From: an uncultured Kiritimatiellota bacterium
Lineage (GTDB): Bacteria > Verrucomicrobiota > Kiritimatiellia > RFP12 > DVOR01
DNA: 64,000 nt
Assembly: GCA_944389545.1 (NCBI GenBank)
Contig: CALXMT010000002.1
Coordinates: forward strand, 108,645-172,644
Reading direction: 5' to 3'
The translations under genes were made by a program, and so were the position numbers. Every line of letters begins with the position of its first letter. Within the stretch, counting starts at the first letter, position 1. Of this stretch, positions 12,213 through 53,790 are shown one piece after another. The notes under the pieces are model-generated. The model saw only the letters and a program-made list of their open reading frames with translations, made no database searches and was not told where the DNA came from.

Positions 12213-12225
12213 GGCAAGCCTCCTC

Positions 12226-12684
12226 TCAAATCCGTTTCATCCACCTCAGACGCAACACGTGCCACCCTGTGATTGCCGACGGCGCCGCCGCCTGGCCCGG
12301 GGCCGGTCGGCCTCCCCCTGCCACATCCGGCGACAACACATAACATTCCGCGAAGCATTCCCCGTCCAATTCCGGCAATCCCTCCGCGTTCAACCGCAAT
12401 GCCGGGCGCGGCACCCGCGGCTTCAACGTTCCCGCCGACACCCCCAGAAAGGCCTCCGCCGCACCCTGCGTCTCCGCGTGTCCCCAGAACGACCGAACCA
12501 CCGCCCCAGACGCCAACGCCTCCCGCAAGGTCTCCACCCTTATTTCCTCGATCTCCACACGCCACCCCCGCACCAACGTCAACGGGAAGGTATTTCCAAT
12601 CAACAACGTCCCACTCACGCCTTCGCCTCCCACTTTCCTGGCCTCCAGTTCCGGATGGCCTGGACGACATAATCGTTTGGGCAT
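12226..12684 (-). CDS. hypothetical protein (152 aa) between card1 and cas10; coding status uncertain
   Basis: ATG-initiated ORF in a locally GC-rich 400-bp gap. Overlaps the card1 3' end by ~70 nt and has no recognisable motif. Several alternative frames are also open. Confidence 0.3.
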   Translation of the reverse strand: MPKRLCRPGHPELEARKVGGEGVSGTLLIGNTFPLTLVRGWRVEIEEIRVETLREALASGAVVRSFWGHAETQGAAEAFLGVSAGTLKPRVPRPALRLNAEGLPELDGECFAECYVLSPDVAGGGRPAPGQAAAPSAITGWHVLRLRWMKRI

Positions 12685-13811
12685 GGCATCGGTAACTCTA
12701 GCAACATCAAATTACCGGCATCTTCGATTCGGGTCAATAGGTTTTGATAATCGGTCTCTACGTTTCCTTTGGTGTGCCCCAAGTTCTTGGAGGATGTCAC
12801 CAAGATTCCGCGTCCAAATGTACCACCATACTCATCAACAATATCACTGAATCGCTGAATTTGCTCGGAACTCACATACCCAGACTTACACTCTACAAGG
12901 TAAAGGCAGAATCCATCCGTGAATGAAACGTCAAATTCTTGCCTAGGCACACTTGTATCCTCAAAGGAGATACTTGCACCCCGTTGAAAATCATAACATC
13001 CTGGCAACCGTTTCACTTGACAGAGTACGTATGTCTCCAACCAAAGCCCTGTCACAAAACGGCAGGTCTCGATATCCCCTTTTGTCTGGCGCACGTTACT
13101 CAACAATCTCACACACCGCTCCGTTGCGGCACGGTCACGTGTTTTGTCCAAGAAATGTTTGGCTAAAGCGTCCAAATCTCCAGATAATACAGACTTAGCA
13201 TATTTTTGCATATCGCCTAGATGGTCGCTCATCTTACCGATATAACCACGGAATCCCCATCGATGTGCGCAAAGGGCACCTGCCAATTCCTCTTCTTCTT
13301 GAGAAACACCCCACTCGCCTGGGACGAAGATATCGGAAGAGCAGAGGCGCACGAATTGTTCTACGGTGGAGAATCCGCGTCTCAGATGCACTTCGCGGTC
13401 TCCACCCACATCAAGTACCCTGCGCGACTGTGTGTCTACATAAAAACACGATAATCCCGTCCAAGCATTAACTAAAGACAATGCCATCAGCTTGGTTCCG
13501 CCCGTGACGTTCGCGGCCACGGATTGCCCCTTATACTCCTCGTGTAGAGCAACAAAATCTTCTCGTAGACGCCGTTGGTTATACGAATCCACCAACTTAA
13601 TCGCTATCGGCATTTCGGCAGTGGCAAACACTGACACTAATCGTTTCGCGACCACCTCTGTCTTTTCTGTTGCCAATAAGATATGCGTTTTGGCCGGAAC
13701 ATTCAGAATGGCGAATGCCACCGGTAATTCCTGTTCGCCAATCAAATGCAATACGACATCAAACACAGACAGATTCTCTCCAAGCTTACTCATCGATCGC
13801 TCCTTGCTCAT
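12615..13811 (-). CDS. can2: CARF-domain + PD-(D/E)xK nuclease, Card1/Can2-like cyclic-oligoadenylate-activated effector
   Basis: ~398 aa; N-terminal Rossmann-like CARF with VTGGTKLMALSLVN. C-terminal EFDVSFTDGFCLYLVECKSG supplies the D...ExK catalytic triad. First gene of the cas operon next to the array. Confidence 0.65.
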   Translation of the reverse strand: MSKERSMSKLGENLSVFDVVLHLIGEQELPVAFAILNVPAKTHILLATEKTEVVAKRLVSVFATAEMPIAIKLVDSYNQRRLREDFVALHEEYKGQSVAANVTGGTKLMALSLVNAWTGLSCFYVDTQSRRVLDVGGDREVHLRRGFSTVEQFVRLCSSDIFVPGEWGVSQEEEELAGALCAHRWGFRGYIGKMSDHLGDMQKYAKSVLSGDLDALAKHFLDKTRDRAATERCVRLLSNVRQTKGDIETCRFVTGLWLETYVLCQVKRLPGCYDFQRGASISFEDTSVPRQEFDVSFTDGFCLYLVECKSGYVSSEQIQRFSDIVDEYGGTFGRGILVTSSKNLGHTKGNVETDYQNLLTRIEDAGNLMLLELPMPCPNDYVVQAIRNWRPGKWEAKA

Positions 13812-13847
13812 CAAACATCGTTAATCCTACCCCAAACTCCCAAAAAA

Positions 13848-16394
13848 GTCAACCATCCTCGCCTTTCGGTTGAAGGATGGTTGCGAGTCGTACGGGAAGT
13901 AGGACGACCCCGATGCCCTGTCGCAACGGGCTCTTGGCTGAGGGATGGTTGCGAGCTAAGTCATTGGTACAAGGAAGTCGAGTTGTCGCAACCGCCTTTC
14001 GGCTGAGGGATGGTTGCGAGGGCACGGCTCCCCAAGGAACCTACGTTCTTCAAGGTCGCAACCGCCTTTCGGCTGAAGGATGGTTGTGAGGGAGGGCAAG
14101 CTCTGCGCTCGACTCTCCATCTACGTCGCAACCGCCTTTCGGCTGAAGGATGGTTGTGAGACCATGCCAGAAAGGTATGGAGAGCTCGCCACAAGTCGCA
14201 ACCGCCTTTCGGCTGAAGGATGGTTGTGAGCTTAGTCGAGAAGACTAAGAAATTTTGGAAGGAAGTCGCAACCGCCTTTCGGCTGAAGGATGGTTGTGAG
14301 ATGGTCTCACGGCCTCAACCCGCAGCCCTGCAAAGTCGCAACCGCCTTTCGGCTGAAGGATGGTTGTGAGTCATCATCCACAACGGCTGCCTCACCCGCG
14401 CCGAGTCGCAACCGCCTTTCGGCTGAAGGATGGTTGTGAGTTACATCCAATGGATATGGATTTGATGAGGCTGTGTCGCAACCGCCTTTCGGCTGAAGGA
14501 TGGTTGTGAGACAAGGTCCAAAGAACGATTCATAAGGTCCATGTGTCGCAACCGCCTTTCGGCTGAAGGATGGTTGTGAGTTAAAGGTGTGGACCCCAGC
14601 TCCCTCTCGGAGTCTGTCGCAACCGCCTTTCGGCTGAAGGATGGTTGTGAGCCTATGGCTTTGACGAAAACGCCATCTTCCACATGTCGCAACCGCCTTT
14701 CGGCTGAAGGATGGTTGTGAGTTAAAGGTGTGGACCCCAGCTCCCTCTCGGAGTCTGTCGCAACCGCCTTTCGGCTGAAGGATGGTTGTGAGCCTATGGC
14801 TTTGACGAAAACGCCATCTTCCACATGTCGCAACCGCCTTTCGGCTGAAGGATGGTTGTGAGACTGATGCAGATTGAACTCGCCGCCCTGATGGAGTCGC
14901 AACCGCCTTTCGGCTGAAGGATGGTTGTGAGATGGGTGCCACCAAACCGCTTTCGACTTCTTTGAGTCGCAACCGCCTTTCGGCTGAAGGATGGTTGTGA
15001 GTGTGCGGCTATCCCGTGTTTATCTGTCAGCTGACGTCGCAACCGCCTTTCGGCTGAAGGATGGTTGTGAGCCAACAGAACCCGTTTCATAGATGAGAGC
15101 TCCAGTCGCAACCGCCTTTCGGCTGAAGGATGGTTGTGAGTTCTTGGCCTGGTCGCGTTTGTCGGAACGGATGTGTCGCAACCGCCTTTCGGCTGAAGGA
15201 TGGTTGTGAGTGCGGGGGCCTTGAGCGTCGCCGAGCTTGTCTGTGTCGCAACCGCCTTTCGGCTGAAGGATGGTTGTGAGAGCTCAACGCCCTCCTCAAC
15301 GCGCGCGCCGAGGAGTCGCAACCGCCTTTCGGCTGAAGGATGGTTGTGAGCACGGAGCGCCGGAGGCGCCCAAAAATCGCAGATGTCGCAACCGCCTTTC
15401 GGCTGAAGGATGGTTGTGAGGCCGAAAAGAAGCCCGAGCCCGCCGCCAAGCCTTGTCGCAACCGCCTTTCGGCTGAAGGATGGTTGTGAGACGTCAAGCC
15501 AGTTCGTCGTCGCGTTCTCCTGCGTGTCGCAACCGCCTTTCGGCTGAAGGATGGTTGTGAGTCGGAGGATGGCACCCTCCAGTTGCGCAATCTGGGTCGC
15601 AACCGCCTTTCGGCTGAAGGATGGTTGTGAGGTCACGGAAGAGACCGAGACGCTCTACGAGAGCGTCGCAACCGCCTTTCGGCTGAAGGATGGTTGTGAG
15701 TTGGCGACACCGTCCCCGTCTCCGCCACCGAGACGTCGCAACCGCCTTTCGGCTGAAGGATGGTTGTGAGTGGCCGGCGTGACCGCCAACGACGCCTTGG
15801 TCCGGTCGCAACCGCCTTTCGGCTGAAGGATGGTTGTGAGTCGTCTCCAATGCAGTTCAGTGTCGTGGCTCAAGTCGCAACCGCCTTTCGGCTGAAGGAT
15901 GGTTGTGAGCCGTCCAGAGGCGCGTCGTCCGGCCCTGGTCTGTCGCAACCGCCTTTCGGCTGAAGGATGGTTGTGAGCGGAAAAATCCGCGGCCTCGGCT
16001 CCACCGACGCGTCGCAACCGCCTTTCGGCTGAAGGATGGTTGTGAGTTTCCCCATCGGGCCTCGCCACGATGGGCACCAGGTCGCAACCGCCTTTCGGCT
16101 GAAGGATGGTTGTGAGTCCCGCTCGACGTGCTCATGCTTTGGTTTTCCGAGTCGCAACCGCCTTTCGGCTGAAGGATGGTTGTGAGGGGAATGCCGCATG
16201 ATGCCCTATGACGTTTGCGCGTCGCAACCGCCTTTCGGCTGAAGGATGGTTGTGAGTTGGAGTTAATGGAGACCACTCCGGTGGACATGGTCGCAACCGC
16301 CTTTCGGCTGAAGGATGGTTGTGAGCGCCAAGGCGCAGAAGCTCGCCGAGGAGGCGGGGTCGCAACCGCCTTTCGGCTGAAGGATGGTTGTGAG
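13848..16394 (-). CRISPR. CRISPR array, 37 repeats of 36 bp (GTCGCAACCGCCTTTCGGCTGAAGGATGGTTGTGAG), 36 spacers of 29-37 bp; leader at 16.4-kb end, degenerate repeats at 13.85-kb end
   Basis: Direct repeats every 69-72 bp. The three leftmost repeats are mutated (trailer end) and an AT-richer leader lies right of 16394. Inferred transcription is toward lower coordinates, co-directional with the cas genes. Confidence 0.95.
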
Positions 16395-16620
16395 TATATC
16401 AAAAAATCGGGTTGATTGCATGGGGGTTATTTGGCGATTTGCGCGAACCTCTGGGGAAAAGGGAGATTTTGTTTGGGATGGGCAGGCGTATTTTTTTTGG
16501 AAGGGAGAGACAACTTCTTCTGTGATAAGCAATTCTTATGTTTGTGCGGCGTGCGCGAACCTCCCAGGGTTTGAAGGGGGGTGATGGGTTCGCGCAGGGA
16601 AGGGGCGGAGAGGCCTTTTA
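16395..16620 (-). promoter_or_regulatory. CRISPR leader with internal GCGCGAACC(T)C repeats
   Basis: AT-rich start (TATATCAAAAAATCGGG...) and three copies of GCGCGAACCyC in direct or inverted orientation. Adjacent to the youngest repeat. Confidence 0.45.
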
Positions 16621-16631
16621 GAAGGGGTGTT

Positions 16632-16768
16632 GGCGGACCACTATAGGGTCTCGGTGTGGACCCCTATAAGGGTTGACCGCGGACCCCTATAAGGGTTGGC
16701 CGCGGACCACTATAGGGTCTCATCTGCGACCACTATAGGGGTCGGGGCGGACCCTTATAGGGTCTGAA
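16632..16768. repeat. iteron cluster A: six tandem ~22-bp units with near-palindromic core GACCACTATAGGGTC / GGACCCCTATAAGGGTTG, preceded by AGGGGTGTTGG
   Basis: Read directly from the sequence; cognate cluster at 47262..47400. Confidence 0.8.
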
Positions 16769-16782
16769 GGGCGGCTGGCGCC

Positions 16783-16855
16783 GCCCCGGAGAACGGAGAA
16801 CAGAGAACGGAGAACGGAAACGCCCCTGCGGGGCGACGGGCGAAGCTCCGAGAAG
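16783..16855. repeat. GAGAACR heptad tandem repeat + CCCCTGCGGGGCGACGGGCG module (mosaic intergenic repeat family)
   Basis: Same module at 22622-22735, 25995-26125, 33045-33215, 53487-53600 and inverted at 53700-53765. Confidence 0.7.
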
Positions 16856-16985
16856 ACCAAGCCGCTAAATTTCTAAACTTTTCTAGAGCGTCCTGCGTGC
16901 GGTAGCACGCCATTAATCTGCTCAAAATCTGCGAAAGCTGCGTTTTTCGGAGATTCGGGGTGCAAATGCATGACGGGTGAAGGCG

Positions 16986-17031
16986 GAACCAAACTTCTAA
17001 ACTTCCAAACTTCTAAACTTCTAAACTTCCA
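16986..17031. repeat. AAACTTCY octamer tandem repeat
   Basis: aacttctaaacttccaaacttctaaacttctaaacttcc; related copies at 26245-26275, 33476-33510 and 52600-52630. Confidence 0.7.
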
Positions 17032-17047
17032 TTTGCGGGTGCAAAAA

Positions 17048-17092
17048 AAAGGCCCCCGGGGGGCCGGGGGCTTTTTGGGGAGTGAGGGGTGG
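17048..17092 (-). terminator. Rho-independent terminator of glgP (GC hairpin GGCCCCCGGGGGGCCGGGGGC flanked by A/T runs, bidirectional)
   Basis: Perfect GC stem directly after the glgP stop codon, with an A8 run on one side and a T5 run on the other. Confidence 0.7.
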
Positions 17093-17095
17093 GCC

Positions 17096-19600
17096 TTACT
17101 TGACCTGGAAGGAGGGGAGGTGCCAGATGTCTTCGGCGTATTCGCGGATGGTGCGGTCGCTGGAGAACTTGCCGGCGGAGGCGACGTTCATCAGGGAGGC
17201 TTTGTTCCAGGCGGTCTGGTCGCGGTAGAGGGCTTCGACGCGGTCTTGGGCCTTGATGTAGTCGGGCAGGTCTTTGAGGAGCATGTAGTAGTCGTTGTAG
17301 TCCAGGAGGTTCTGGAGGAGGGGCTCGAAGATTCCGGGGGCCATGAGGGAGAAGACGTTGCGGCGGATCATGTCGAGCGCGCGCTTGATCTCGGGGTTGC
17401 TCTCGTAGATGGCCTTGGAGTTGTAGGTGGGGCGGAGTTTGGCGACTTCTTCGGTTTTGAGGCCGAAGATGACGATGTTGTCGTCGCCGACTTCCTGGGC
17501 GATTTCGACGTTTGCGCCGTCGAGGGTGCCGAGGGTGATGGCGCCGTTGAGCATGAGTTTCATGTTGCCGGTGCCGGAGGCCTCGGTGCCGGCGAGGGAG
17601 ATTTGCTCGGAGACGTCGGCGGCGGGGATGATTTTCTCGGCGAGGGAGACGCGGTAGTCGGGGAGGAAGGCGACGGCGATGCGGCCCTTGACGAGGGGGT
17701 GGGAGTTGACGACGCTGGCGACGCCGTGGATGAGGCGGATGATGAGCTTGGCGACCCAGTATCCGGGGGCGGCTTTGGCGCCGAAGACGAAGACGCGGGG
17801 GTAGACGTCGAGGTCGGGCTTTTCAATCAGGCGATTGAAGAGGATGATGATGTAGAGGACGAGGAGGAGCTGGCGCTTGTACTCGTGGAGGCGCTTGACC
17901 TGGACATCGAAGATGGCGTCGGGGGAAACCTGGAAGCCGAGGGTGTTGAAGATGGTGTTGGCGAGGATTTCCTTGTTGGCGCGTTTGATTTCGGCGAAGC
18001 GCTTGAGGAAGGCTTTGTCGTTGACCTTGGCTTTGAGCTTGGAGAGCTGGCTGAGGTCGGTGACCCAGCCGTCGCCGATGGTCTCGGTGATGAGGGCGGC
18101 GAGGCGGGGGTTGGCCTTGAGGAGCCAGCGGCGCTGGGTGATGCCGTTGGTCTTGTTGGAGAAGTGGGTGGGCATGATCTCATAGAAGTCCTTGAAGATG
18201 GTCTTCTTGAGGATCTCGGTGTGGAGTGCGGCGACGCCGTTGACGGCGGAGGTGCCGACGAGGCAGAGGTTGGCCATGCGGACGAATTTATCGCCGCTTT
18301 CGTCGATGAGGCTCATGCGGGCGAGGCGGGCGACGTCGCCGGGGAAGAGGGTGGCGACCTGCTGGAGGAAGCGTGCGTTGATCTCGTAGATGATCTGCAT
18401 GTGGCGGGGGAGGACGCGCTCCATGAGGGGGACGGGCCACTTTTCGAGGGCTTCGGGGAGGACGGTGTGGTTGGTGTAGCCGGTGCAGGCGCGGACGTAG
18501 GTCCAGGCGTCGTCCCAGGTGAGGCCTTCGACGTCCACGAGGATGCGCATGAGCTCGGGGATGACGAGGGTGGGGTGGGTGTCGTTGAGCTGGATGAAGA
18601 CGTACTTGGGGAGGTGGCGCCATTCGTGGCCTTCCTCGCGGAAGCGGCGGAGGATGTCGTGGACGGAGGCGGCGACGAAGAGGTATTGCTGGCGGAGGCG
18701 GAGCTCTTTGCCGGCGGTGGTGGAGTCGTTGGGGTAGAGGACTTTGGTGAGGTTCTCGGCGAGGACTTTGCTTTCGACGGCTTCGACGTAGTCGCCGCGG
18801 TTGAATTCGTCGAGGGAGAATTCGTTGGTGGCTTTGGCGCTCCAGAGGCGGAGGGTGGAGACGGTTTTGCCTTGGTAGCCGACGATGGGGAGGTCGTAGG
18901 GGACGGCCTGGACCTGTTGCGCGGGGACCCAGACCCATTCGTCGCGGCCGGTGCGGCCGGTGTAGTGCTCGACGTGGCCGCCGAAGCCGATGAGGCAGGC
19001 GTATTCGGGGCGCTGGATTTCCCAGGGGTAGCCGTATTTCAGCCAGTTGTCGGGCTCTTCGCGCTGTTCGCCGTTGACGATGCGCTGGCGGAAGATGCCG
19101 TAGTCGTAGCGCAGGCCGTAGCCGGTGGCGGGGAGGTTGAGGGTGGCGAGGGAATCCATGAAGCAGGCGGCGAGGCGGCCGAGGCCACCGTTGCCGAGGC
19201 CGGCGTCCATCTCGTAGTCGCGGAGGCGGTTCCAGTCCAGGCCGAGGGAGTCCATGGCTTCGCGGCACTGCTGCTCGAGGCCGAGGTTGATGACGTTGTT
19301 GCCGAGGAGGCGGCCGATAAGGAACTCGAGGGAGAGGTAGTAGACGCGGCGGACCTTGGCGGCGCGGTAGGCGTCTTGGGTGGCCATCCAGCGGTCGACG
19401 ATGCGGTCGCGCACGGCATAGGCGAGGGCTTTGTAGCAATCGCGTTCGGTGGCTCGGTCGCCGCTCTTGGCGAGGGAGAAACGCATGTTCCAGAGGAAGT
19501 CCTGGGCGAGGCCCTCGGCGGTGAACTCAGCGGAGGGGTGGTTGCCGGGCAGGACGACCTTTTCGGTGGTTTTGTCCTTGGTCTTGGTGGACGTGCTCAT
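17096..19600 (-). CDS. glgP: glycogen/maltodextrin phosphorylase
   Basis: 834 aa; EFLIGRLLGNN, NGGLGRLAACFMDSLATL and the pyridoxal site EASGTGNMKLMLNGA. Confidence 0.95.
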   Translation of the reverse strand: MSTSTKTKDKTTEKVVLPGNHPSAEFTAEGLAQDFLWNMRFSLAKSGDRATERDCYKALAYAVRDRIVDRWMATQDAYRAAKVRRVYYLSLEFLIGRLLGNNVINLGLEQQCREAMDSLGLDWNRLRDYEMDAGLGNGGLGRLAACFMDSLATLNLPATGYGLRYDYGIFRQRIVNGEQREEPDNWLKYGYPWEIQRPEYACLIGFGGHVEHYTGRTGRDEWVWVPAQQVQAVPYDLPIVGYQGKTVSTLRLWSAKATNEFSLDEFNRGDYVEAVESKVLAENLTKVLYPNDSTTAGKELRLRQQYLFVAASVHDILRRFREEGHEWRHLPKYVFIQLNDTHPTLVIPELMRILVDVEGLTWDDAWTYVRACTGYTNHTVLPEALEKWPVPLMERVLPRHMQIIYEINARFLQQVATLFPGDVARLARMSLIDESGDKFVRMANLCLVGTSAVNGVAALHTEILKKTIFKDFYEIMPTHFSNKTNGITQRRWLLKANPRLAALITETIGDGWVTDLSQLSKLKAKVNDKAFLKRFAEIKRANKEILANTIFNTLGFQVSPDAIFDVQVKRLHEYKRQLLLVLYIIILFNRLIEKPDLDVYPRVFVFGAKAAPGYWVAKLIIRLIHGVASVVNSHPLVKGRIAVAFLPDYRVSLAEKIIPAADVSEQISLAGTEASGTGNMKLMLNGAITLGTLDGANVEIAQEVGDDNIVIFGLKTEEVAKLRPTYNSKAIYESNPEIKRALDMIRRNVFSLMAPGIFEPLLQNLLDYNDYYMLLKDLPDYIKAQDRVEALYRDQTAWNKASLMNVASAGKFSSDRTIREYAEDIWHLPSFQVK

Positions 19601-19629
19601 GGTGAGTCTCCTTGGGGGGATGAAGGGGG

Positions 19630-20004
19630 TTAGCGGGCGGACTTGGCGTTGCGGGCCTCGTTGCCGCGGGATTTGCGGCCCATGCCGGGTTTGCCGTTGC
19701 GGGCTTCGTTGACGCGGAGTTCGCGGCCCATGACGGTTTTCTTGTTGAGGGCCTTGATGGCCTTTTCGGCCTCGACGCGATAGACCATCTCGACGAAACC
19801 GAAGCCTTTGCTCTTGTTGTTGAAGCGGTTGGTGATGACACGGGCGTCGCGGACGGTGCCGTATTTGGCGAAGAGCTTTTCGAGCTGTTCGTCGGTCATG
19901 TCATAGTTCAGGTTGCCGGCGAAAATCTCGATGCGTTCCTGGGGGCCGGTGGGGGCCTTCTTGCGGATGCCGAAGAGGGCGAGCAAGGGGGAGAAGATGC
20001 TCAT
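19630..20004 (-). CDS. RRM-type RNA-binding protein
   Basis: IFAGNLNYDMT (RNP2), KGFGFVEM (RNP1) and a C-terminal RG-rich tail. Confidence 0.8.
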   Translation of the reverse strand: MSIFSPLLALFGIRKKAPTGPQERIEIFAGNLNYDMTDEQLEKLFAKYGTVRDARVITNRFNNKSKGFGFVEMVYRVEAEKAIKALNKKTVMGRELRVNEARNGKPGMGRKSRGNEARNAKSAR

Positions 20005-20048
20005 GGTGTCTGGGGTTCTTTCTGTCTGTCTTGGTCTGGGGTGGGGGC

Positions 20049-22469
<2,421 letters not shown>

Positions 22470-22524: not shown

Positions 22525-22621
22525 ATTGCCTATAATTTTAGCAAAACCGCATGCCATTCGGCAAAACTTTTAGTGCATTTCCAATCGTCTCCGGGGAATT
22601 TCCACAAAGACGATTTGGGCG

Positions 22622-22860
22622 GCTTATGCCGCCCCGGAGAACAGCGAACGGAGAACAGAGCGTGCAGGCCCAGAGGGCCAAACCTTCCACGGCCACGGAA
22701 CGCCCCTGCGGGGCGACGGATGGAGTTCCCAAGAAAATGATAAGGCACGAAACGGAGGGCGTCGGTCGCGGTCAGCGGTGAAGCCGTCGTCCAATCAGCT
22801 AATCAGCTGGATGCTCCGCTAGAGCACCCTTTCTTCGCGGTTTCCATTTTCCCGGACACA
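22622..22860. repeat. mosaic intergenic repeat: GAGAACR heptads + partial MITE-like element with one TIR (CGCGGTTTCCATTTTCCCGGACA)
   Basis: Shares modules with 25995-26262, 33045-33215 and 52462-52795. Confidence 0.65.
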
Positions 22861-22863
22861 ATT

Positions 22864-22895: not shown

Positions 22896-22912
22896 GGATG
22901 ATCGGCTGGGCA

Positions 22913-24580
22913 TCAGCGTTCGCCGAGGAAGCCGTCGAGTTTCTTGATGCGCGAGGGGTGACGGAGCTTGCGCAGGGCCTTGGCTTCGATTTGGCGGATG
23001 CGCTCGCGCGTGACGTTGAATGCCTTGTTGACCTCGTCGAGGGTGTGCACGACGCCGTCCGTGAGGCCGTAACGCATATCGAGGACCTCGCGATCGCGCT
23101 CATTGAGAACAACGAGTACTTCGCGCAGACGCTCTTTGAGTTGGGCGAAGGCGGCGGCATCCTCGGGGCGCTCGGCGTCTTCGCCGTCGTCAACGGGGCT
23201 CTGCAGGGAGCTGGGTTGCTGGGCCATGCGGCAGATGTTGCGGATGCGTTCGACGGGCATGCCCATTTCCTCGGCGGTCTCCTCCGGAGTGGGCTCGCGG
23301 CCGAGTTCCTGGAGAAGCTTCTTCTGCGCACGGAGGAGCTTGTTGATGGTCTCAATCGTGTGCACGGGGATGCGGATGGTGTGGGCTTGGTCGCCGGTGG
23401 CACGGGTGAGGGTCTGGCGGATCCACCAAGTGGCGTAGGTGGAGAACTTGTAGCCGCGCTTGTACAGGTCCACGAACTTCTCGACGGCCGTCATGAGACC
23501 GGTGTTACCCTCTTGGATGAGCTCGAGGAGGCTGAGACCGCGGTTCATGAACTTCTTGGCGATGGAGACGAGAAGGCGGAGGTTCGCCTCGATCACTTTA
23601 CTTCGGTTCTGGGTAATCAAGTGGAGTGCTTGGCGAAGCTCTTTGAACTTCTCCATGAAGAGGTCAGCGGGCATGCCGAGGGCCTGTTCGGCCTCATCTC
23701 GGGCGGCTTCGGCCTTGGCGACATGCTGGGCCTTAGTCTTGCTCTCGGCCTTCTGGGCCTTTTTGAGAGCCGCGATGGCGCTGGCGTAGGGCTTGTAATA
23801 GCACTTCTCCGCTTCGATGCAGATGTCCTCCAGTATCTTTTGCTTGAAGTGGAGCGAGTCGTACTTGGTACGCAACGCCTCGCACAAGGCTTCGATTTGC
23901 TTGTCAGCCTTGTCCAGGGCGTCGGTGTCCTCGGGATTGAGATTGGCGCGGGCCATGTAGGCCTCGGCCATGCGGTCGCCCAAGCGGTTGAGCGCCTCTT
24001 GCTCCGGGTGCATCGTCTCGACGTACTCGTCGCGTTTCTTGTCGGTCTTGGCGACCACGCGGTTGAACCTCTCGCGGCCGGCCTCCAGGTCGCTCAAGAC
24101 TTGGGCGTAGAGGCGCGGGGCCATGGGCAACTGGTTGAAGACCTCGAAGATGACCCTTTCGCCGGCCTCGATGCGCTGGAAGATTTCCACCTCCTGCTCG
24201 CGCGTCAGTAGGGGCACTTTGGAAATTTGGCGCAGGTAGATGCGGATGGCGTCGTCGCAGTGATCCTCGCGTTTGGCGGAGGCCTCCCCCTTATATTCAT
24301 CGAGCGCGTCCAAATCTTTCTGGTCGTGGGCCCTCTTGGCTTCTTTTTCGGATTCGTTGAAGACCGCGCGCAGGACAGACCCTTCGCACAGACCGTCGAG
24401 GGACTCCTCGTCGTCGGCCATGTCCTCCGCGTCGGTGTACGCATTGTCTAGCGATTCCTTCTCGAGGTCCATCCTCGAGTCGGCGACGGCAGGCTTTTGG
24501 GGCTCAGTTTCCGGTTTGTCTTGCTTCGTAGCCATAGGTGAGAAACGCTCCTTGGGGGTGTTCGGTTGGTTTTGCCACAA
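22913..24580 (-). CDS. second sigma-70 family factor, RpoD paralog (tandem to rpoD)
   Basis: 555 aa; C-terminal 300 aa nearly identical to the upstream RpoD (…[34 protein letters not shown]) with a divergent N-terminus. Confidence 0.85.
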
Positions 24581-25974: not shown

Positions 25975-26265
25975 TCACAAAAAGGTAATCGTGGGGCACC
26001 TCGGGTGCCCCGGAGAACGGAGAACAGAGAACGGAGAACGGGAGGGACGCTGACGCGTCCCGGAGAACAGAGAACAGAGAACAGAGAACAGAGCGCGCGG
26101 CAAGCGCGCGACGGGTGGGGTTTCTGGAAATTGACCAGACGCGAAACGGAGGGCGGCGGGCGCGGTCAGCGGCGGAGCCGCAGAGCGACCGATGGAGCCC
26201 GAGGCGTTTCGCGCCCACAGTTGCGTCTTTGCGGTCTCATTTCAATGAAAGACCAAGCCTCTAGA
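25975..26265. repeat. mosaic intergenic repeat: GGGGCACC-TCG-GGTGCCCC hairpin, GAGAACR heptads, GCGCGCGGCAAGCGCGCGACGGGTGGGG module, partial MITE-like element with TIR
   Basis: Near-identical modules at 53487-53600, 33045-33215 and 22622-22860. Confidence 0.7.
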
Positions 26266-33039: not shown

Positions 33040-33215
33040 AAGTCGGGCGCAGACGCGCCCCGGAGAACAGAGAACAGAGAACAGAGCGTGCAGGCCCAAA
33101 GGGCCAAACCTTCCACGGCCACAGAACGCCCCTGCGGAGCGACGGGCGGAGCGGTGGGAGGGTGTGGAAGATTTACCCTGCGGGGCTGACACGAAGAACA
33201 CGAAGGACCACAAAG
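33040..33215. repeat. mosaic intergenic repeat (GGGCGCAGACGCGCCC hairpin, GAGAACA heptads, CAGGCCCAAAGGGCCAAACCTTCCACGGCCAC module)
   Basis: Same module at 22640-22735 and a partial copy at 33395-33475. The hairpin can serve as the trkH terminator. Confidence 0.65.
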
Positions 33216-47184: not shown

Positions 47185-47213
47185 CACGCCTCGTGGCGTG
47201 CCTTTTTTATGTT
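47185..47213 (+). terminator. yggS terminator (GGCACGCCTCGTGGCGTGCC + T-run)
   Basis: Perfect hairpin followed by TTTTTTAT. Confidence 0.7.
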
Positions 47214-47261
47214 TACTTACGCGACGCCTCTGCCCTGGAAAAGGGGTGTTGGAGAAACCCT

Positions 47262-47400
47262 TAAGGGTCCGAGGTGAGACCCTATAGTGGTCGGGGTCGA
47301 GACCCTATAGTGGTCGGGGTCGAGACCCTATAGTGGTCCATGGTCGACCCCTATAGTGGTCCAGAACGAACCCTTAAGGGGTCCGCAACAGACCCCTTGC
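47262..47400. repeat. iteron cluster B: six tandem ~22-bp units (core GACCCTATAGTGGTC, flanking AACCCTTAAGGGGTCC), preceded by AGGGGTGTTGG
   Basis: Cognate of the cluster at 16632-16768; followed 12 bp later by a solo MITE TIR at 47412-47455. Confidence 0.8.
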
Positions 47401-47499
47401 TCTCGTACAAACCAATAGTGTCCGGGGAAAAAGAGATGGACCGCAAAGACGCAACTCTTGCAGGAAGATGAGGCGTCATTGAATCTTCTAAGTTTCTTG

Positions 47500-47640
47500 T
47501 GCGCCTGGGGTTGTTTCCAAAGAAATGATGGAAACACAAGGGAAGGGCACGGTAGAGAGGCCGTAAGGCCGAACGGTGAAGTGCCCAGGCCCTTGTGTTC
47601 CTTTCGTGTTTTCGTGGAAACATCCTCGGACAGTGTTGGC
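47500..47640 (+). ncRNA. candidate structured RNA / cis-regulatory leader upstream of PNPOx/Nim gene
   Basis: Nested helices are visible: GTTTCCA..TGGAAAC, ACAAGGG....CCCTTGT enclosing GGGCAC..GTGCCC and a GGCC-GUAA-GGCC tetraloop hairpin, then GTTCC..GGAAC. Lies in the untranslated gap before 47702. Confidence 0.3.
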
Positions 47641-47701
47641 CTAGCAGTGTGATAAAATAGGGCCAAAGCTCTAGACGGGACTTTTGAGTGAGGACGCGAC
47701 C

Positions 47702-48184
47702 ATGAGAAGAAAAGAACGTGAAGTGACAGATCTCAACGAGATTAAGGATATTCTGACACGGGCCGAGGTTCTCCGGGTCGCCTTGAACAACGGCGACTAT
47801 CCCTATCTCTTCCCGGTGAACTACGGATTTGTCATGGATGGCGCACAGTTGGTGCTCTTCTTTCATGGGGCGAAGGAGGGTGCCAAACACGCCATTATCG
47901 CGCGGGACAACAAGGTCACCTTTGAGGTCGATTGCGGCCATGCGCTGATGCAACCGCTCGGCGAGGAATCCTGCACTAGCAGTTTCGCCTATGAAAGCGT
48001 CATCGGAACCGGCACGATTGAAAAGGCCGCGGACTCAGAAAAAGAAGCCTTACTGCCCCTGTTGCTGGAACATTATGGAATCACGGCAAAGCATTTCAAT
48101 CCCGTACATCTGGCCAATACGGTCGTCTACAAAATCACGGCAACGACCTACACGGCCAAGCGCAGAGTCAACGACCGACTCTGA
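47702..48184 (+). CDS. pyridoxamine 5'-phosphate oxidase-family FMN-binding protein (Nim-like); start at MRRKEREV
   Basis: ILTRAEVLRVALNNGDYPYLFPVNYGF and the split-barrel PNPOx pattern. Confidence 0.7.
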   Translation: MRRKEREVTDLNEIKDILTRAEVLRVALNNGDYPYLFPVNYGFVMDGAQLVLFFHGAKEGAKHAIIARDNKVTFEVDCGHALMQPLGEESCTSSFAYESVIGTGTIEKAADSEKEALLPLLLEHYGITAKHFNPVHLANTVVYKITATTYTAKRRVNDRL

Positions 48185-48512
48185 TAGATGCCGATAAAGT
48201 GTAAACCCGCAAAGCGACCGGTGTTACTCCATCCGGCGTCGCGTGTACTGGTGTCTTCGCGGAAAGACTTCCTCGAATGCTCTTGTGCTTGACGGGGTGG
48301 TGCGGGATGATATAAACTAACCACATCAGTACGAAGGGACTCGTAAATGGCGTTCACTGCAATGTGTTTGAAGCTTGGCGTTGTGGCGATGCTCACGGCG
48401 CAGGGCAACGCCGTGCGGAGGGCGTTTGTGTGGGATTTCACGAAGCCGGTTGCCACACTGCCCTTTTCGTTGAGATAGGTGCAGTGGGTGAAGTCAACGT
48501 CACGACTGTTGA

Positions 48513-49661
48513 TTGGTGTCACTGATGAAGAAGTCGCAATCACGGAGGACGCATCGAGGTAAAGTGGCCTCGTTGTTGCTTCGTGTCGTGCTTGTCATCT
48601 TTGCTTTGTGTGCAACGATAACGCTCTATCTTGTACATGACGAGACGATGCGTGAACGCCGCAATGCACCCCAGCGGGAAGTCGAGGTGCACGAATTGTT
48701 GCAGGTTCGTGAGGGAGGTGTTTTTCCACCACGGGTACAGGACCAACCTTGTCTGCGGACAAGTGATGGTGAGATTGTGCATTGGGAGGCTTCATTGGGA
48801 GAGTTGGCGGAGTTTTGCCGCCAGGGATTGCCCTTTAGGATGAACGTGTATGAGATGTATGGAGGGCTGTATTATTATTCTTCTTATGCAGCCAGAGGGT
48901 GGTTGATTTTCTCGATGTCCTTGTTTCTTTTCTCTTTACACATTCTGTTTTGGCCTGTCAAACGGTCGAAAGTGGAACCCGTCGCTTGTATATCCAAGCG
49001 GGGAGCTTCCATTGGCATGGCCGTTACGGACAAGATAACGTTTGACCTGTCTCAACACGAGCGTCGTCGCCGTATTGTGTTCCAAGTAGTGATTCAGGGT
49101 GCCTTTGCCGTCCTCTTCGTCGGGTGGATGACGTATGCATGGGGATGGTCTTGGTTATTGTTGGCGGTAGCGCTTCCGGTTTTACTGAGCACGGCGCTTG
49201 TTTGTTGGCCAGACGCTCTCGTCCGTTTCATAGGTGGGGCGTTACTCCTATGCGTTCCCTTTTTGGCAGAGGCTTTCGGACACGGTTTGTATTGGCGGGA
49301 AACGACGCGTATTGAAGCAATTCCGCGATATGTGCGCTACGACATGAGCCATTCTGCCGACAAAAAGCATGGGGCGCCTGAGGAGGTTTACGAAGTGCTC
49401 TTCAGCTATGATTGGGCGGGAAGAGAACGTTATGGGTTTATACGCCTTCGCTCAAATCAAGCCGCAGAATGTGCTTTGATCCGTCAGTTGAGAGGGGGTC
49501 ACCTTCAATTGTTGCGTGATCAGTCGCCTGAGGGTCGCTTTTTTGCCTTTGACGCGGCTTGGGCCATCAGCCAACTTGTCAGTGGGGCGGGCGCGCTCTT
49601 TTGCTTCTTGTGCGGAGGTGCCATGCTCTTGCTGGGGCAGAAGAAGCGGAGGACCGAATGA
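48513..49661 (+). CDS. hypothetical polytopic membrane protein (low-GC island)
   Basis: 382 aa with at least 5 TM segments and no recognisable motif. Local GC is ~42-50% versus ~67% background. Confidence 0.45.
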   Translation: MVSLMKKSQSRRTHRGKVASLLLRVVLVIFALCATITLYLVHDETMRERRNAPQREVEVHELLQVREGGVFPPRVQDQPCLRTSDGEIVHWEASLGELAEFCRQGLPFRMNVYEMYGGLYYYSSYAARGWLIFSMSLFLFSLHILFWPVKRSKVEPVACISKRGASIGMAVTDKITFDLSQHERRRRIVFQVVIQGAFAVLFVGWMTYAWGWSWLLLAVALPVLLSTALVCWPDALVRFIGGALLLCVPFLAEAFGHGLYWRETTRIEAIPRYVRYDMSHSADKKHGAPEEVYEVLFSYDWAGRERYGFIRLRSNQAAECALIRQLRGGHLQLLRDQSPEGRFFAFDAAWAISQLVSGAGALFCFLCGGAMLLLGQKKRRTE

Positions 49662-49893
49662 GACGGAACGCGCGGAACCAGAACATTGCCATCGCCCCCT
49701 TCGGCGCTGTCATCCGTATCCTTCAGGCATTTGAGAGGGTACACCAATGATGTACGTAAAAGAACTTGCCCCAAAAGAGTGGACGCTTCGATTCTGGTTG
49801 CATGGGCCACTGGCAACCCTTCGGGAGTGGAGGCATGAACGGGTCGAGTAGCATGGAAGACCGCAAAGATGGGTTTATGAGTGGAAGGACTAC

Positions 49894-50376
49894 TTGTTCA
49901 ACCTTATCGCAGGACTTCCTATTTTCCTGCTAGGATGTGGTCTATTCTATTATCATGCCTGTGTGGAAGAGAGTATCGCGGTTGGCGTTGTGGTGGCTGC
50001 TATCCCTTTTTGCGGAGGGGCGTGGATGGTTCTGGCTCCTCTTCGCTCTTGGCTTGGGCATTTCGCCCTTCATTATTATCTGACGCCATCAACAATCCTT
50101 GTCGTTTTCAGGTTTCTCTTCTTCAGCGTTTCCCTGTCCGCCCCAAAGCAAAGGATTGGCTTTGTTCTGATTGATCGGTATGAGGAGGTGGCCGTCATCA
50201 AGTTCGCGAATCTTTCGTTTACCCCCGTTGATAGACTTGATGATATCACCGTAGAACTGAAGTTTTATGGGTTGACCTTGTCTGATTGCCTGGCGTTGCG
50301 GTCTTATTTCAGCGGTAAGGCGTTTTATGTCTCCGGTGAGCATCCGGATGAGTATAAGGCGTACCGCGGCGGTTGA
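49894..50376 (+). CDS. hypothetical membrane-anchored protein (low-GC island)
   Basis: 160 aa with two N-terminal TM helices then a small soluble domain. Confidence 0.4.
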   Translation: MFNLIAGLPIFLLGCGLFYYHACVEESIAVGVVVAAIPFCGGAWMVLAPLRSWLGHFALHYYLTPSTILVVFRFLFFSVSLSAPKQRIGFVLIDRYEEVAVIKFANLSFTPVDRLDDITVELKFYGLTLSDCLALRSYFSGKAFYVSGEHPDEYKAYRGG

Positions 50377-50500
50377 CAAGTGTTGGTGAGCGGTGTATCC
50401 TATGAAACATGAGGATGATGTCTATGGGAACCGCATCAAGACGGCGACCTTCTTGGATAAGGAAGGGAATGGGACATCGTGGTTGAATAAGTGAGGCGGA

Positions 50501-51718
50501 GTGGCTTTCATGAGATTCGTGATTTTATTGCTTGGGTTTTGTTTGACTGGCTTGTCTTGGGCCTCGTGTGTGCAATTCATATGGATTGATGAAGACGGCA
50601 ATGAGGTAGAGCTCCCTATTGGGCCAACGTTTTATGAACGCTTTTCAAGAGGGATGGATAGAGAAACTGTCGCTCAAGCCCTGAATGAAGGGTGTCCCAG
50701 ACGAACACGAGAAATCTCGTTCGAGGAGGCATGTGCGGAGTTTTTCGACCTGAGGCAATCGGTTCCTTTTCTATTTAGGGAAGGGCGCACTGTCACGGCC
50801 TATCAAGAAATCCCTGTAGAGAATCAGCGTGGCGGCTCCTTGCCGCAGAGCGATGTGGATGAGGAGCAATTTTACTTCTTTATATTTGATGAACAGGGGC
50901 AACTGACAGATGCGGTTGAAGTACCGCAGAACAGAGGGGAACCGCTCTTCTTCATAGAGGGCGAATTTGTCGATGAACTATTATCCCTCAAGCAAGGCGA
51001 GGAATCAGAGGCGGTGTTTGCGAGATTCGGGACCCGTCGGCCAATCCAGCATTTGCAAACGCAAGATGGGCGATGGTATGTTATCTATAACTATGAGTGT
51101 GTCGCAAATGGGCGACGCGGGGTCTTTTGCAGGGTATGGATTGGTGGCGGTACGGGGCGAGTGGAGTATGTCGAAGGAGGAATGCTAGGTCGAAAATGGA
51201 CCGGTGGGCAATCTGACGCGAAAGATGTGGAGGCCATTTTGCAGGAAGCCATCCGTGAATGTGAGAGGAAATCAGGAGGTCAGTGGAAGGAATCCTTAGA
51301 CACTGTGCGGTTACGATTGGTTTTATCCCGTTACCGGAGTGAGTCAGGCAAGGTCTCCGCGGATGACGAGAGAGGGCTTTGCCAACAGGTTGAACGCATA
51401 CTGGTCAAGGAAAGCAAAGACGCTGCGAGCGATGCCGCAAGTGGTTTCGGGAGTGATTTGGTCGCGGCGCGTCTGCGCGAGAGACTGACGCGGTTTAGGT
51501 GCGAAGAAAGCCAGACGCTTTATTCGCTTTTCCCCGGTGACACGGTTGATTTGTCGCCTTTGTTGTGGGAACATCGGCGTGCGGCGGAAGCGCTTGTCAA
51601 ACTGTCGTATCAAGCGTATCAAGCCGGGACGATAGACGAACGAGAGTTCATAGATGCGCTCTTATTGTTGAACCCTCCTTCTCCCCGTATCGTTCCGGAG
51701 ACAGAGGATACATTATAG
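50501..51718 (+). CDS. hypothetical secreted/lipoprotein (low-GC island)
   Basis: 405 aa; signal peptide MAFMRFVILLLGFCLTGLSWASC (possible lipobox) and an acidic domain with no known motif. Confidence 0.45.
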   Translation: MAFMRFVILLLGFCLTGLSWASCVQFIWIDEDGNEVELPIGPTFYERFSRGMDRETVAQALNEGCPRRTREISFEEACAEFFDLRQSVPFLFREGRTVTAYQEIPVENQRGGSLPQSDVDEEQFYFFIFDEQGQLTDAVEVPQNRGEPLFFIEGEFVDELLSLKQGEESEAVFARFGTRRPIQHLQTQDGRWYVIYNYECVANGRRGVFCRVWIGGGTGRVEYVEGGMLGRKWTGGQSDAKDVEAILQEAIRECERKSGGQWKESLDTVRLRLVLSRYRSESGKVSADDERGLCQQVERILVKESKDAASDAASGFGSDLVAARLRERLTRFRCEESQTLYSLFPGDTVDLSPLLWEHRRAAEALVKLSYQAYQAGTIDEREFIDALLLLNPPSPRIVPETEDTL

Positions 51719-51883
51719 TCAGAAGAAGCAACGAACATGTCTATGCTGACACGTTTTGGAGTTTCGTCAAATCGCGCAATGATACGGTCGCCTCGCAGTA
51801 CAACGATATGAACAATCTGCTCGGCCACCCTGTGTGGATGTGCTAAAGCAAGGGTGATGGGATAACCAAGGAGGAGCGGTGAT

Positions 51884-52354
51884 ATGCACGTTTACCTCAA
51901 GTATGGGTTTGTGCTTTTCCCTACAGAGCAGATGAAGTTGACGAGATTGTCGAGCGAAGGTGTTTATTTGTACAGTGGTTGCATCTTATCCCATCTGTTT
52001 GGAAACGCTCGGGGTCGGTCATGGGTTGTATTTTCACGTAATCGTGTACGTCTTCATGGTGTGACACCGTTCAATAGCGGGAGCATGGATTACTGTTTTT
52101 CCAAAAGGGAGATTCGATCCATCTATACAAACGATTCGCCCTCCGTTCCTTTCTTGGGGACGGGCTATGGGCTCGATTCGAGGCCTCCGTTTCTGACAAG
52201 AATGTATTATTTTTATACCGCTCCAGCGCTCAGATATCGATGGCCTATGCGGTACAGGTTTCTGATCATCGAGATGGTATCCTTCTATATCCTCATGTTT
52301 GTCGAGTCTGAACGTGAAGTGCGTCTATATCAAGAGCAGCTCAAAAAACGATAA
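51884..52354 (+). CDS. hypothetical protein (low-GC island)
   Basis: 156 aa, Tyr/Arg-rich, C-terminal hydrophobic helix. Confidence 0.35.
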   Translation: MHVYLKYGFVLFPTEQMKLTRLSSEGVYLYSGCILSHLFGNARGRSWVVFSRNRVRLHGVTPFNSGSMDYCFSKREIRSIYTNDSPSVPFLGTGYGLDSRPPFLTRMYYFYTAPALRYRWPMRYRFLIIEMVSFYILMFVESEREVRLYQEQLKKR

Positions 52355-52461
52355 AGATTCTCTTAAATGGCAATCTCGCAGATTGTTTGTCCTTGGTGAA
52401 GAATGCGGTTGTCAAATAACCGCACTTCCCTTGCTCTTTGACAATGGCATCGTGTTTGTGG

Positions 52462-52795
52462 CAATAGTGTCCGGGGAAGTTTTACCGCGAAAACGGTCTT
52501 GCGTGGAAACCCTGCGGGCTCCATCGCTCCCGTTGGTCGCGCCGCCCTTGGGGTTTCCACGCTATCGCGCCCCTGAAGGGGCGCTCAAAAGGGGAATGAG
52601 GAAGTTTGGAAGCTTGGAAGTTCAGCTTTTACGGTGGGGCTTCGCCTCACATCCTCTACATTCCTTACTTCAAGGCGCGAAACGGAGGGCGGCGGTCGCG
52701 GTCAGCGGCGAAGCCGCAGAGCGACCGATGGAGCCCGAAGCGGTTCGCGCCAATTGTTGCGTCTTTGCGGTTCCCATTTTCCCCGGACAGTATTG
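52462..52795. mobile_element. MITE-like non-coding element copy 2, complete, with ~38-bp terminal inverted repeats CAATAGTGTCCGGGGAAnnTTTnCCGCGAAAACGG... / ...TTGCGTCTTTGCGGTTCCCATTTTCCCCGGACAGTATTG
   Basis: TIRs read directly from the sequence. The interior matches 5698-6055 (reverse complement), and fragments or solo TIRs occur at 22745-22860, 26115-26262, 40168-40206 and 47412-47455. No ORF of transposase size. Confidence 0.7.
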
Positions 52796-52834
52796 TGTTT
52801 GTGGTGGGCGATTGACCCGAGCGTGGTCTTATTA

Positions 52835-53464
52835 TTATAGAGCGGGGAGGAGGGCGATGAGGCGGCGGGCGAGGTCGAGTTTGGAGAGGAGGGGGAGGGC
52901 CTCGCGGCGGCCATCGGGGTAGAGGAGGGTGACGCGGTTGGTCTCGACGGCGAAACCGGCTCCGGGAGCGGTGACGTCGTTGGCGACGATGAGGTCGAGG
53001 CCCTTTTCACGGAGTTTGCGCCCGGCCTCGGCGGTCGGTTCGCCGGTTTCGGCGGCGAAGCCGATGAAGCGGCGGTTCCCCTTTTGGGGACGGATGGTCT
53101 TGAGGATGTCGGGATTGGGGACGAGGCGGAGGACGCCGTTCATGCCGGACTTTTTGAGTTTGGTGGAGGAACAGGTCTCGGGACGCCAGTCGGCGACGGC
53201 GGCGGAGGCGATGAGGACATCGGCCTGAACCAGTTCACGCTGGACGGCGGCAAGCATATCGCGGGCGGTAACGACATCGACACGGCGGACGTTGGGCGGG
53301 GTGGGGAGCTCAACGGGGCCGGCGATAAGGGTGACGGTGTGGCCGGCCTCGGCGGCGGCCTGGGCAATGGCGAAGCCCATACGGCCGGTGGAACGGTTGG
53401 AGAGGAAGCGAACGGGGTCAATGGGCTCGCGCGTAGGGCCGGCGGTGATGAGGATGTGTGACAT
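52835..53464 (-). CDS. coaB: phosphopantothenate--cysteine ligase (CoaB domain only)
   Basis: [27 protein letters not shown]...[10 protein letters not shown] is the CoaB signature; 209 aa with no CoaC flavoprotein half. Confidence 0.8.
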
Positions 53465-53486: not shown

Positions 53487-53790
53487 GCCTGAAGTTAAGG
53501 AGAACGGAGAACAGAGAACGGAGAACGGAGCGCGCGGCAAGCGCGCGACGGGTAGGGTGGAGGGAGAACAGTGGAATGTTTGCCTTGCGGGGCTGACACG
53601 AAGGGGCACGAAGAACCACGAAGGTCTACAGAGAAAGAACGTATACGGCTTGACGGGACGTGCCACAAAGGGAACGAGGACGTTCGCCCGTCGCCCGTAA
53701 GGGCGTTCTGTTCTCTGTGGCCGTGGAAGGTTTGTCCCTTCGGGCCTGCACGCTCCGTTCTCTGTTCTCTACTAAGTCGGGCTGGCCCGA
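53487..53790. repeat. mosaic intergenic repeat (GAGAACR heptads, GCGCGCGGCAAGCGCGCGACGGGTAGGG, inverted partner module) ending in hairpin AGTCGGGCTGGCCCGACT that can terminate panD
   Basis: Near-identical to 25995-26125; the hairpin at 53766-53786 sits just after the panD stop. Confidence 0.65.

Follow-up and report, generated by a model that had tools for sequence, protein, structure and literature searches.

Why should the GC-rich chromosome of an uncultured gut bacterium carry a GC-poor run of small membrane and exported proteins that match no entry in the family libraries? We address this question for a 64-kb window (64,000 nucleotides of contig CALXMT010000002.1, assembly GCA_944389545.1; unlabeled coordinates refer to this window), in which an initial annotation had singled out four co-directional open reading frames (ORFs) of 382, 160, 405, and 156 amino acids (aa) as a candidate accessory system, possibly an envelope-associated defense or toxin/immunity module. 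We found all four on the plus strand, as listed. We consider it probable that the island is a degenerate Rhs orphan-cassette array in a Candidatus Spyradenecus-like gut Lentisphaerota host and that its surviving genes are orphan immunity genes. The observations behind this reading are Rhs remnants between the ORFs, the position of one gene behind the same toxin in two separate arrays, the pattern of guanine-plus-cytosine (GC) content, purifying selection, and the variable gene content of the site among relatives.

GC content, computed in 400-nt windows, is 0.46 to 0.55 across about 47,200 to 52,600 and 0.62 to 0.70 on either flank, with means of 0.51 for the island and 0.62 for the entire window; the ORFs stand at 0.46 to 0.53 against 0.65 to 0.67 for the flanks. 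The sharp drop described at first is thus real, but the 42 to 50% attached to it was slightly too low. The low-GC block begins about 1 kb before the start it had been given and therefore takes in a fifth ORF, A (47702 to 48184, plus strand), which encodes a 160-aa PNPOx-like flavoprotein (Pfam Pyridox_ox_2, 8e-18, 65 bits against a cut-off of 27). With 35.5 bits against a NimABCDEF cut-off of 260, A is not an equivalog of the Nim 5-nitroimidazole reductases but a generic Pyridox_ox_2 member.

The other four ORFs, B to E, all on the plus strand, are the subject of the initial annotation. Gene starts were chosen via public gene calls and exact-sequence look-ups in a public protein collection. 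ATG starts are favored for B, a polytopic membrane protein of 378 aa with about six transmembrane (TM) segments in a hydropathy scan (48525 to 49661), and for D, a 402-aa exported protein (50510 to 51718) with a lipobox-like N terminus, ...(L/W)ASC, in which the same scan finds an N-terminal signal only. C (49747 to 50376) would encode a 3-TM membrane protein of 209 aa if intact, as judged by alignment to the intact copies of L011 and L014 (L005, L011, L017, L019, L024, L044, and similar labels denote contigs or loci of relatives). E (51884 to 52354) encodes a 156-aa protein without a TM segment or signal and has GGAGG 9 nt upstream of its ATG. Promoter-like sites are present at 48289 to 48318 and at 50373 to 50401. 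The proposed association with the envelope is borne out to this extent: B and C are both membrane proteins, and the N terminus of D is signal- and lipobox-like.

Rhs remnants and intact Rhs arrays

Comparing the island with the Rhs genes of L017 and L019 by tblastn and blastn, we found that a short remnant of Rhs/YD-repeat core sequence, in each case on the plus strand, precedes each of B, C, D, and E. Remnant 1 (48347 to 48510), the “QGNAVRRAFVWDFTKPVATLPFSLR*” region directly upstream of B, contains a stop and a frame change. It matches the L017 Rhs proteins and a 112-aa fragment from L005 with tblastn E values from 2e-11 to 7e-5, five copies of the Rhs core in L017 share 79 to 85% DNA identity with it, and its 43-aa ORF gives no TIGR03696 match. 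Remnant 2 (49693 to 49726), the “APFGAV” region, lies just past the B stop codon and before C and is 91% identical to L017 13285 to 13317 and L019 4674 to 4697. Upstream of D, remnant 3 (50370 to 50485) comprises YD-repeat sequence from the central part of the core; it aligns with residues 1268 to 1301 of the main Rhs protein (tblastn E value of 8e-6), and its DNA is 80% identical to L017 3783 to 3880 and L019 3435 to 3532. Remnant 4 (51754 to 51879), before E, holds the beginning of the orphan fragment that comes next, is interrupted by a stop and an internal deletion, and aligns by tblastn with residues 5 to 60 of L017 RhsCT415 (E value of 5e-5) and with RhsCT390; DNA homology to L017 runs 60 nt beyond the D stop codon and picks up again at 51823 to 51878. 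The remnants span 11 to 55 codons, most of them interrupted by a stop or deletion, and none holds an intact TIGR03696 core domain or a toxin tip. Likewise, neither a toxin tip nor a main Rhs gene is present within the 64-kb window.

Since the pieces match separate parts of the Rhs core in colinear alignments, they are unlikely to be a generic, non-Rhs dispersed repeat. That the “spacers” between the ORFs are Rhs remnants had been overlooked in the initial annotation.

The arrays of L017 and L018, from a sister species, show how such core pieces are arranged when intact. Their main Rhs protein exceeds 1,974 aa and matches RHS_repeat, YD_repeat, and the Rhs-associated core domain TIGR03696. Past it come, in order, a 205-aa protein, orphan390, a 384-aa protein, orphan349, and a D homologue, followed in the second half of the array by orphan415, a 193-aa protein, orphan361, and a 207-aa protein. 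All four orphan fragments of L017 exceed the TIGR03696 cut-off and then run into unrelated tips of about 190 aa. Altogether, L017 (1 to 14749), L018, and L019 hold at least five distinct toxin tips and five exported proteins in immunity slots, making this array a source of new toxin and immunity families in Lentisphaerota.

Within this layout, the D homologue of L017 and L018, with 85% identity, directly follows an orphan Rhs C-terminal (Rhs-CT) fragment, orphan349. On an independent contig, L019, a D homologue with 82% identity stands directly behind the same tip, which carries a HEREHAND motif. The recurrence of D behind the same tip in L017/L018 and in L019 indicates that the immunity slot filled by D goes with that specific toxin tip, so that its assignment as a predicted immunity protein is well supported by position, and the HExxH-bearing tip of L017 orphan349 together with D makes one candidate toxin-immunity pair. 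The HExxH motif suggests a metallopeptidase toxin, a suggestion that no family match backs: Pfam searches of the L017 toxin tips returned a sub-threshold DUF922 for the main Rhs tip, which has HExxH, and nothing for the partner of D.

The remaining immunity-slot proteins of L017 resemble D in their N termini, which are of the lipobox type in 3 of 4 (205, 193, and 207 aa) and hydrophobic and signal-like in the 384-aa protein. The lipoprotein-type N terminus that D shares with most of the L017 slot proteins points to a toxin that acts in the envelope. The array is also uneven in composition, with a GC content of 0.65 in the L017 Rhs core, 0.41 to 0.45 in the toxin tips, and 0.36 to 0.50 in the immunity-slot genes. 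This pattern of Rhs tip and immunity cassettes explains the low-GC signal of the island.

By their position behind Rhs remnants, B, C, and E would be immunity proteins as well, with the putative assignment of E the weakest of the set. Conversely, one ORF of the island, such as B or E, could be a toxin and its neighbor the cognate immunity protein, which would make the island an active toxin-immunity module. Rhs tips often encode toxins without recognizable features, E is small, basic, and without homologues, and the L005 fragment fused upstream of B finishes in a Gly-rich stretch. However, none of the island ORFs shares its reading frame with an Rhs-associated core domain, the core pieces all being short and interrupted; each of B, C, and D has a start of its own and features that target it to the envelope, in the manner of the immunity-slot genes of L017; and the place of D relative to the toxin is constant in two arrays. 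We therefore regard an active module as quite improbable. The toxin/immunity option of the initial annotation pointed to the right biological world, but the toxin it called for is not present, and what is left of it are degenerate Rhs fragments.

Coding status and gene content across relatives

None of B to E has a match in Pfam, NCBIfam, PADLOC, or PHROGs, in agreement with the earlier remark that they lack recognizable motifs. The B family is small (11 representatives at an E value of ≤1e-3 among 1.84 billion), and Pfam searches with all 14 of its members gave scattered single-member noise only. Clusters at 90% identity number four for B, at ≥79% identity, and likewise four for D, and E has no homologue beyond its own cluster; at the 90% level, the clusters to which B, D, and E belong have 65 to 73 members each, most among those listed being full length. 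The remote-homology and structure predictions first proposed as a check were run for B and D and gave little to build on. Profiles of the two families found nothing below an E value of 0.7 among Protein Data Bank sequences, and AlphaFold2 models from shallow alignments were unusable, with predicted local distance difference test (pLDDT) scores of 36.9 for D and 38.1 for B. Scans of genome contigs with D and of metagenome contigs with the B and D alignments also returned no match.

Could these ORFs then be chance reading frames in decaying foreign DNA? Consistent with this are the lack of family matches for B to E, the broken C gene, and a probably spurious 207-aa ORF at 52299 to 52922. Substitution patterns speak strongly against it. 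Against diverged copies from public metagenomes (L011 to L023), ratios of nonsynonymous to synonymous substitution (dN/dS), calculated by NG86, are 0.03 to 0.05 for A, 0.20 to 0.27 for B, 0.12 to 0.40 for C, 0.18 to 0.27 for D, and 0.11 to 0.28 for E, the last from just 7 to 14 substitutions, as opposed to about 0.4 to 10 in the two shifted frames over the five genes and about 0.7 to 2.1 for B and D (0.7 to 1.5 for B). Purifying selection is thus frame specific for A, B, C, and D over 8 to 16% nucleotide divergence, and no in-frame stop interrupts any homologous segment aligned for B or D. The E ORF is unbroken in all 14 aligned variants from its 65-member cluster, and the size of the B, D, and E clusters points in the same direction. 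Hence, B and D are clearly under purifying selection and coding, for which the junk explanation is refuted; E is probably coding; and for the island as a whole, noncoding junk is scarcely tenable.

In this strain, the C gene is damaged. An in-frame TAG at 49849 to 49851 leaves a 160-aa ORF with a TTG start (49894 to 50376), and C homologues are 207 to 209 aa long (MMYVKALSPKEW...), with most members of its 90% cluster at 209 aa. The L020/L021 allele carries a frameshift.

Mapping the five genes across relatives, we found that they occur in different combinations. In L011 to L016, whose flanks are about 92% identical to those of the window, the order is NrdR, an array of 23-nt tandem repeats, A, B, and an intact C that ends 6 bp from coaB, without D or E. 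L020 and L021 have B, the frameshifted C, D, and E. L005 has B alone: in L005 to L010, B (81% identity) lies at another chromosomal site, between an HNH gene and macAB, and in L005 it is flanked on each side by an Rhs remnant, one of 112 aa and one of 68 aa. D occurs alone, within Rhs arrays, in L017 to L019, and A accompanies B in two contexts. L024, a GTDB genome whose tricorn protease is 98% identical, has none of A to E; instead, coaB is followed by a Type ISP restriction-modification (R-M) system and then by the same 23-nt array. The L024 enzyme (9672 to 14486) is 1,604 aa long and has the domains Mrr_cat_2, ResIII, ISP_coupler, Eco57I, and Type_ISP_C. In the sister species L026 and L044, no matches to A to E are found past coaB, and L044 also has no low-GC stretch. 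Judged by these sequence comparisons, the site between yggS and coaB is a strain-variable hotspot, and its differing content among relatives identifies the island as a modular, decaying cassette array, not a four-gene system.

The accessory character ascribed to the block accordingly stands, since close relatives lack it or have other cargo in its place, but the notion of a coherent four-gene system does not. Whether the four genes travel together, the comparison suggested at the outset, was examined across these relatives, and they do not: they occur apart in L011, L005, and L017 to L019, and C is broken in the window. This bears directly on the idea of a novel envelope-associated antiphage system in which a membrane, an anchored, a secreted, and a small protein act jointly. 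Such a system would fit the co-directional, envelope-directed genes, the Type ISP R-M system at the same hotspot in a sister strain, and boundary repeats shared with a type III-B CRISPR-Cas (clustered regularly interspaced short palindromic repeats and associated proteins) locus. Yet the lack of co-occurrence largely refutes it, Rhs remnants separate the genes so that they are not operon-tight, C has a nonsense mutation here and a frameshift in L020/L021 whereas the other genes are retained, and D resides in Rhs arrays. No link to phage defense was found in PADLOC either (0 families at an E value of ≤1 for A to E), and we consider an antiphage system very improbable.

Several points weigh against the interpretation as an orphan immunity array. 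A small gene paired with a toxin tip is seen for D only, and homologues of B, C, and E were never found beside an intact toxin. Distant relatives of B (31 to 45% identity) lie in ordinary contexts of host GC content, next to gltX, a leucine-rich repeat (LRR) protein, or a histidine kinase, with no Rhs sequence or toxin near them on the short contigs concerned (L050 to L055), and B may therefore be a native membrane-protein family caught between Rhs remnants. E is without relatives, and its selection signal comes from few substitutions. The unusable models of B and D leave the interpretation without structural support, and the absence of toxins covers the 64-kb window, so that a cognate toxin elsewhere in the genome would mean that the genes are not “orphan.”

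Some of these points favor an unrelated origin, in which acquired cargo or native, lineage-specific membrane genes happen to lie beside Rhs debris and B, C, and E are not immunity genes. Apart from the distant B homologues in non-Rhs, host-GC contexts, this would agree with A being an ordinary, strongly constrained flavoprotein and with the dispersed repeats and rearrangement breakpoints that bound the site. However, Rhs remnants bracket B at two chromosomal sites (in the window and in L005), the GC content of B, C, and E fits Rhs tip and immunity cassettes and not the host, and D demonstrably belongs to Rhs arrays. We consider an unrelated origin unlikely and retain the degenerate Rhs immunity array as the best explanation.

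From these comparisons we infer how the array may have arisen and may work, including the immunity activity of every protein, the activity of the toxins, and the mechanism of deletion. The ancestral layout would have been a main Rhs gene followed by orphan fragments, each with a core end and a variable toxin tip, alternating with small immunity genes. All toxin tips would then have been lost when copies of the Rhs core recombined or the DNA between them was deleted, which left short, untranslatable core remnants before B, C, D, and E while the immunity genes persisted. D, exported and probably lipid anchored, would bind an Rhs C-terminal toxin with an HExxH motif that related strains deliver into the envelope, and would block it. 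Going by position only, B, with about six TM segments, and C, with three, may protect from membrane- or envelope-acting toxins, and E may act in the cytoplasm against a cytoplasmic toxin. The array would thus serve as a passive interbacterial defense against the Rhs toxins of related strains, neither a phage defense nor an active toxin system, and would decay slowly, with C already inactivated in this strain.

Boundaries of the site and other features of the window

The repeats said to bracket both the island and the CRISPR-Cas locus were found again: 47262 to 47381 matches 16619 to 16742, and 52475 to 52778 matches 5748 to 6040, and the two partners form the edges of a Cmr/Card1 CRISPR-Cas locus of type III-B. 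The left boundary (47262 to 47381, no strand assigned) is a tandem array with a 23-nt period and a 15-bp near-palindrome, GACC(A/C)CTATAG(G/T)GGTC. Arrays of this kind, with 4 to 6 units, occur in the window at 16619 to 16765, beside the CRISPR array, and at 47262 to 47381, as well as in L011 (9023 to 9106) and L024 (14530 to 14640), and they fall exactly at the edges of strain-variable cargo, namely CRISPR-Cas, the immunity array, and the Type ISP R-M system. The core genes beyond them vary among relatives (yggS, nrdR, or an AAA-ATPase/PDDEXK_9 gene), which suggests that the arrays mark rearrangement breakpoints; no recombinase was found near them. A transposon between the two arrays of the window was rejected, since core genes, topA and yggS among them, lie in the 30 kb that separates the two. 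The coaB-adjacent site and the 23-nt array together are a candidate marker for variable defense cargo in this clade.

The right boundary (52463 to 52794, no strand assigned) is an element of about 330 bp resembling a miniature inverted-repeat transposable element (MITE), with terminal inverted repeats AATA(G/C)TGTCCGGGGAA, for which 6 matches were observed and 0.01 expected. Copies of about 280 to 330 bp lie at 52463 to 52794 and 22583 to 22863, with solo ends at 47414 and 39934, and related copies lie at 5748 to 6040, flanking the Cas genes, and at 26137 to 26243. The 207-aa ORF mentioned above was rejected as a gene because it crosses this MITE-like repeat and overlaps E and coaB. An antisense ORF of 131 aa at 48148 to 48543 was likewise rejected, its “homologies” being Rhs remnant 1 read on the wrong strand.

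Inside the left boundary lies a dispersed, hairpin-type repeat of about 90 bp (47531 to 47620, no strand assigned) that is 81 to 82% identical to copies in L005, at 9467 to 9556 and, inverted, at 11539 to 11622. The two L005 copies, inverted relative to each other, enclose a cassette of Rhs remnant, B, and Rhs remnant, which may mean that the B cassette once moved as a unit bounded by these repeats. Scanning the window for Rfam families and tRNAs gave no matches, and Pfam and NCBIfam searches found no recombinase or integrase domain of the rAID-1 type in any ORF of the island.

Elsewhere in the window, the type III-B CRISPR-Cas locus (6337 to 16400) encodes Cmr2/Cas10, Cmr3, three RAMP proteins, and a Card1-like CARF-nuclease effector and has a CRISPR array of about 37 copies of a 37-nt repeat; cas1 and cas2 are not evident among the scanned ORFs. 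An 887-aa ORF (16970 to 19633, plus strand) directly past the CRISPR-side 23-nt array has no Pfam match at an E value of ≤0.001. A coding tandem duplication of about 1.7 kb (20044 to 21803 versus 22908 to 24433, 76 to 88% identical, repeat families D5 to D9 and D16) has the appearance of two adjacent paralogous genes that have diverged. Intergenic GGAGAAC/AGAGAAC heptad repeats are dispersed over the window (16783 to 16828, 22631, 26007, 26057, 33057, 53494, and others) and often adjoin a conserved, hairpin-like element of 57 nt (33069 to 33125, 53714 to 53770, and 22643 to 22699).

Comparison with known systems

The compositional anomaly and the four “orphan” ORFs are explained without a new system, and current concepts stay unchanged. 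The proteins are new families, up to four of them candidate immunity families (B, C, D, and E), and the element type, an orphan immunity array left from Rhs or effector displacement, is already known from other bacteria. There is a slim chance of something more: the 23-nt arrays and MITE-like elements might be a new cargo-exchange mechanism of Lentisphaerota hotspots that exchanges CRISPR-Cas, R-M, and immunity arrays among strains, or B might found a new immunity or defense family with about six TM segments that counters a toxin acting on membranes, the tip of which is gone. As it stands, the locus documents Rhs toxin warfare in an uncultured gut lineage of Lentisphaerota (Candidatus Spyradenecus-like) in which orphan immunity genes have been kept. 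The tricorn-like protease that flanks the site points to metagenome-assembled genomes from human and animal guts that bear the labels Candidatus Spyradenecus, “Kiritimatiellaeota,” or Lentisphaeraceae.

A close parallel is with the arrays of orphan rhs-CT/rhsI and cdiA-CT/cdiI cassettes behind main Rhs and contact-dependent growth inhibition (CDI) genes (Poole et al. 2011, PMC3150448; Koskiniemi et al. 2014, PMC3967940). As in orphan rhs-CT/rhsI arrays, core pieces are repeated before each cassette, a small gene stands behind each variable tip, AT-rich cassettes alternate with GC-rich core, and content varies by strain; L017 and L018 show this exact layout. Unlike those arrays, the window has no tips, no core domain, and no main Rhs gene within its 64 kb, and the host is an uncultured Lentisphaerota.

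Immunity-only arrays that arise by effector displacement are known from type VI secretion system (T6SS) clusters of Vibrio cholerae (Kirchberger et al. 2017, PMC5361080) and from Rhs immunity genes in Serratia (PMC10539506), and acquired interbacterial defense (AID) clusters are known from gut Bacteroidales (PMC10470768, PMC12247911). In contrast to these, the array lies apart from any secretion-system cluster within the 64 kb and has no recombinase or integrase, unlike rAID-1; a toxin-paired homologue is demonstrated for D only, and one gene is already a pseudogene. In common with them, heterogeneous immunity genes are kept without cognate effectors in a gut setting, they resemble immunity genes paired with effectors in other strains, as found for D, and their presumed benefit is protection from the toxins of kin and sister species. 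With respect to defense islands and hotspots, no integrase, tRNA, or attachment-site logic was found here, and the boundaries are instead a 23-nt array and MITE-like repeats. Like such hotspots, however, the same site carries different protective cargo by strain, a Type ISP R-M system in L024 and an immunity array here, and its boundary repeats are common to the CRISPR-Cas locus.

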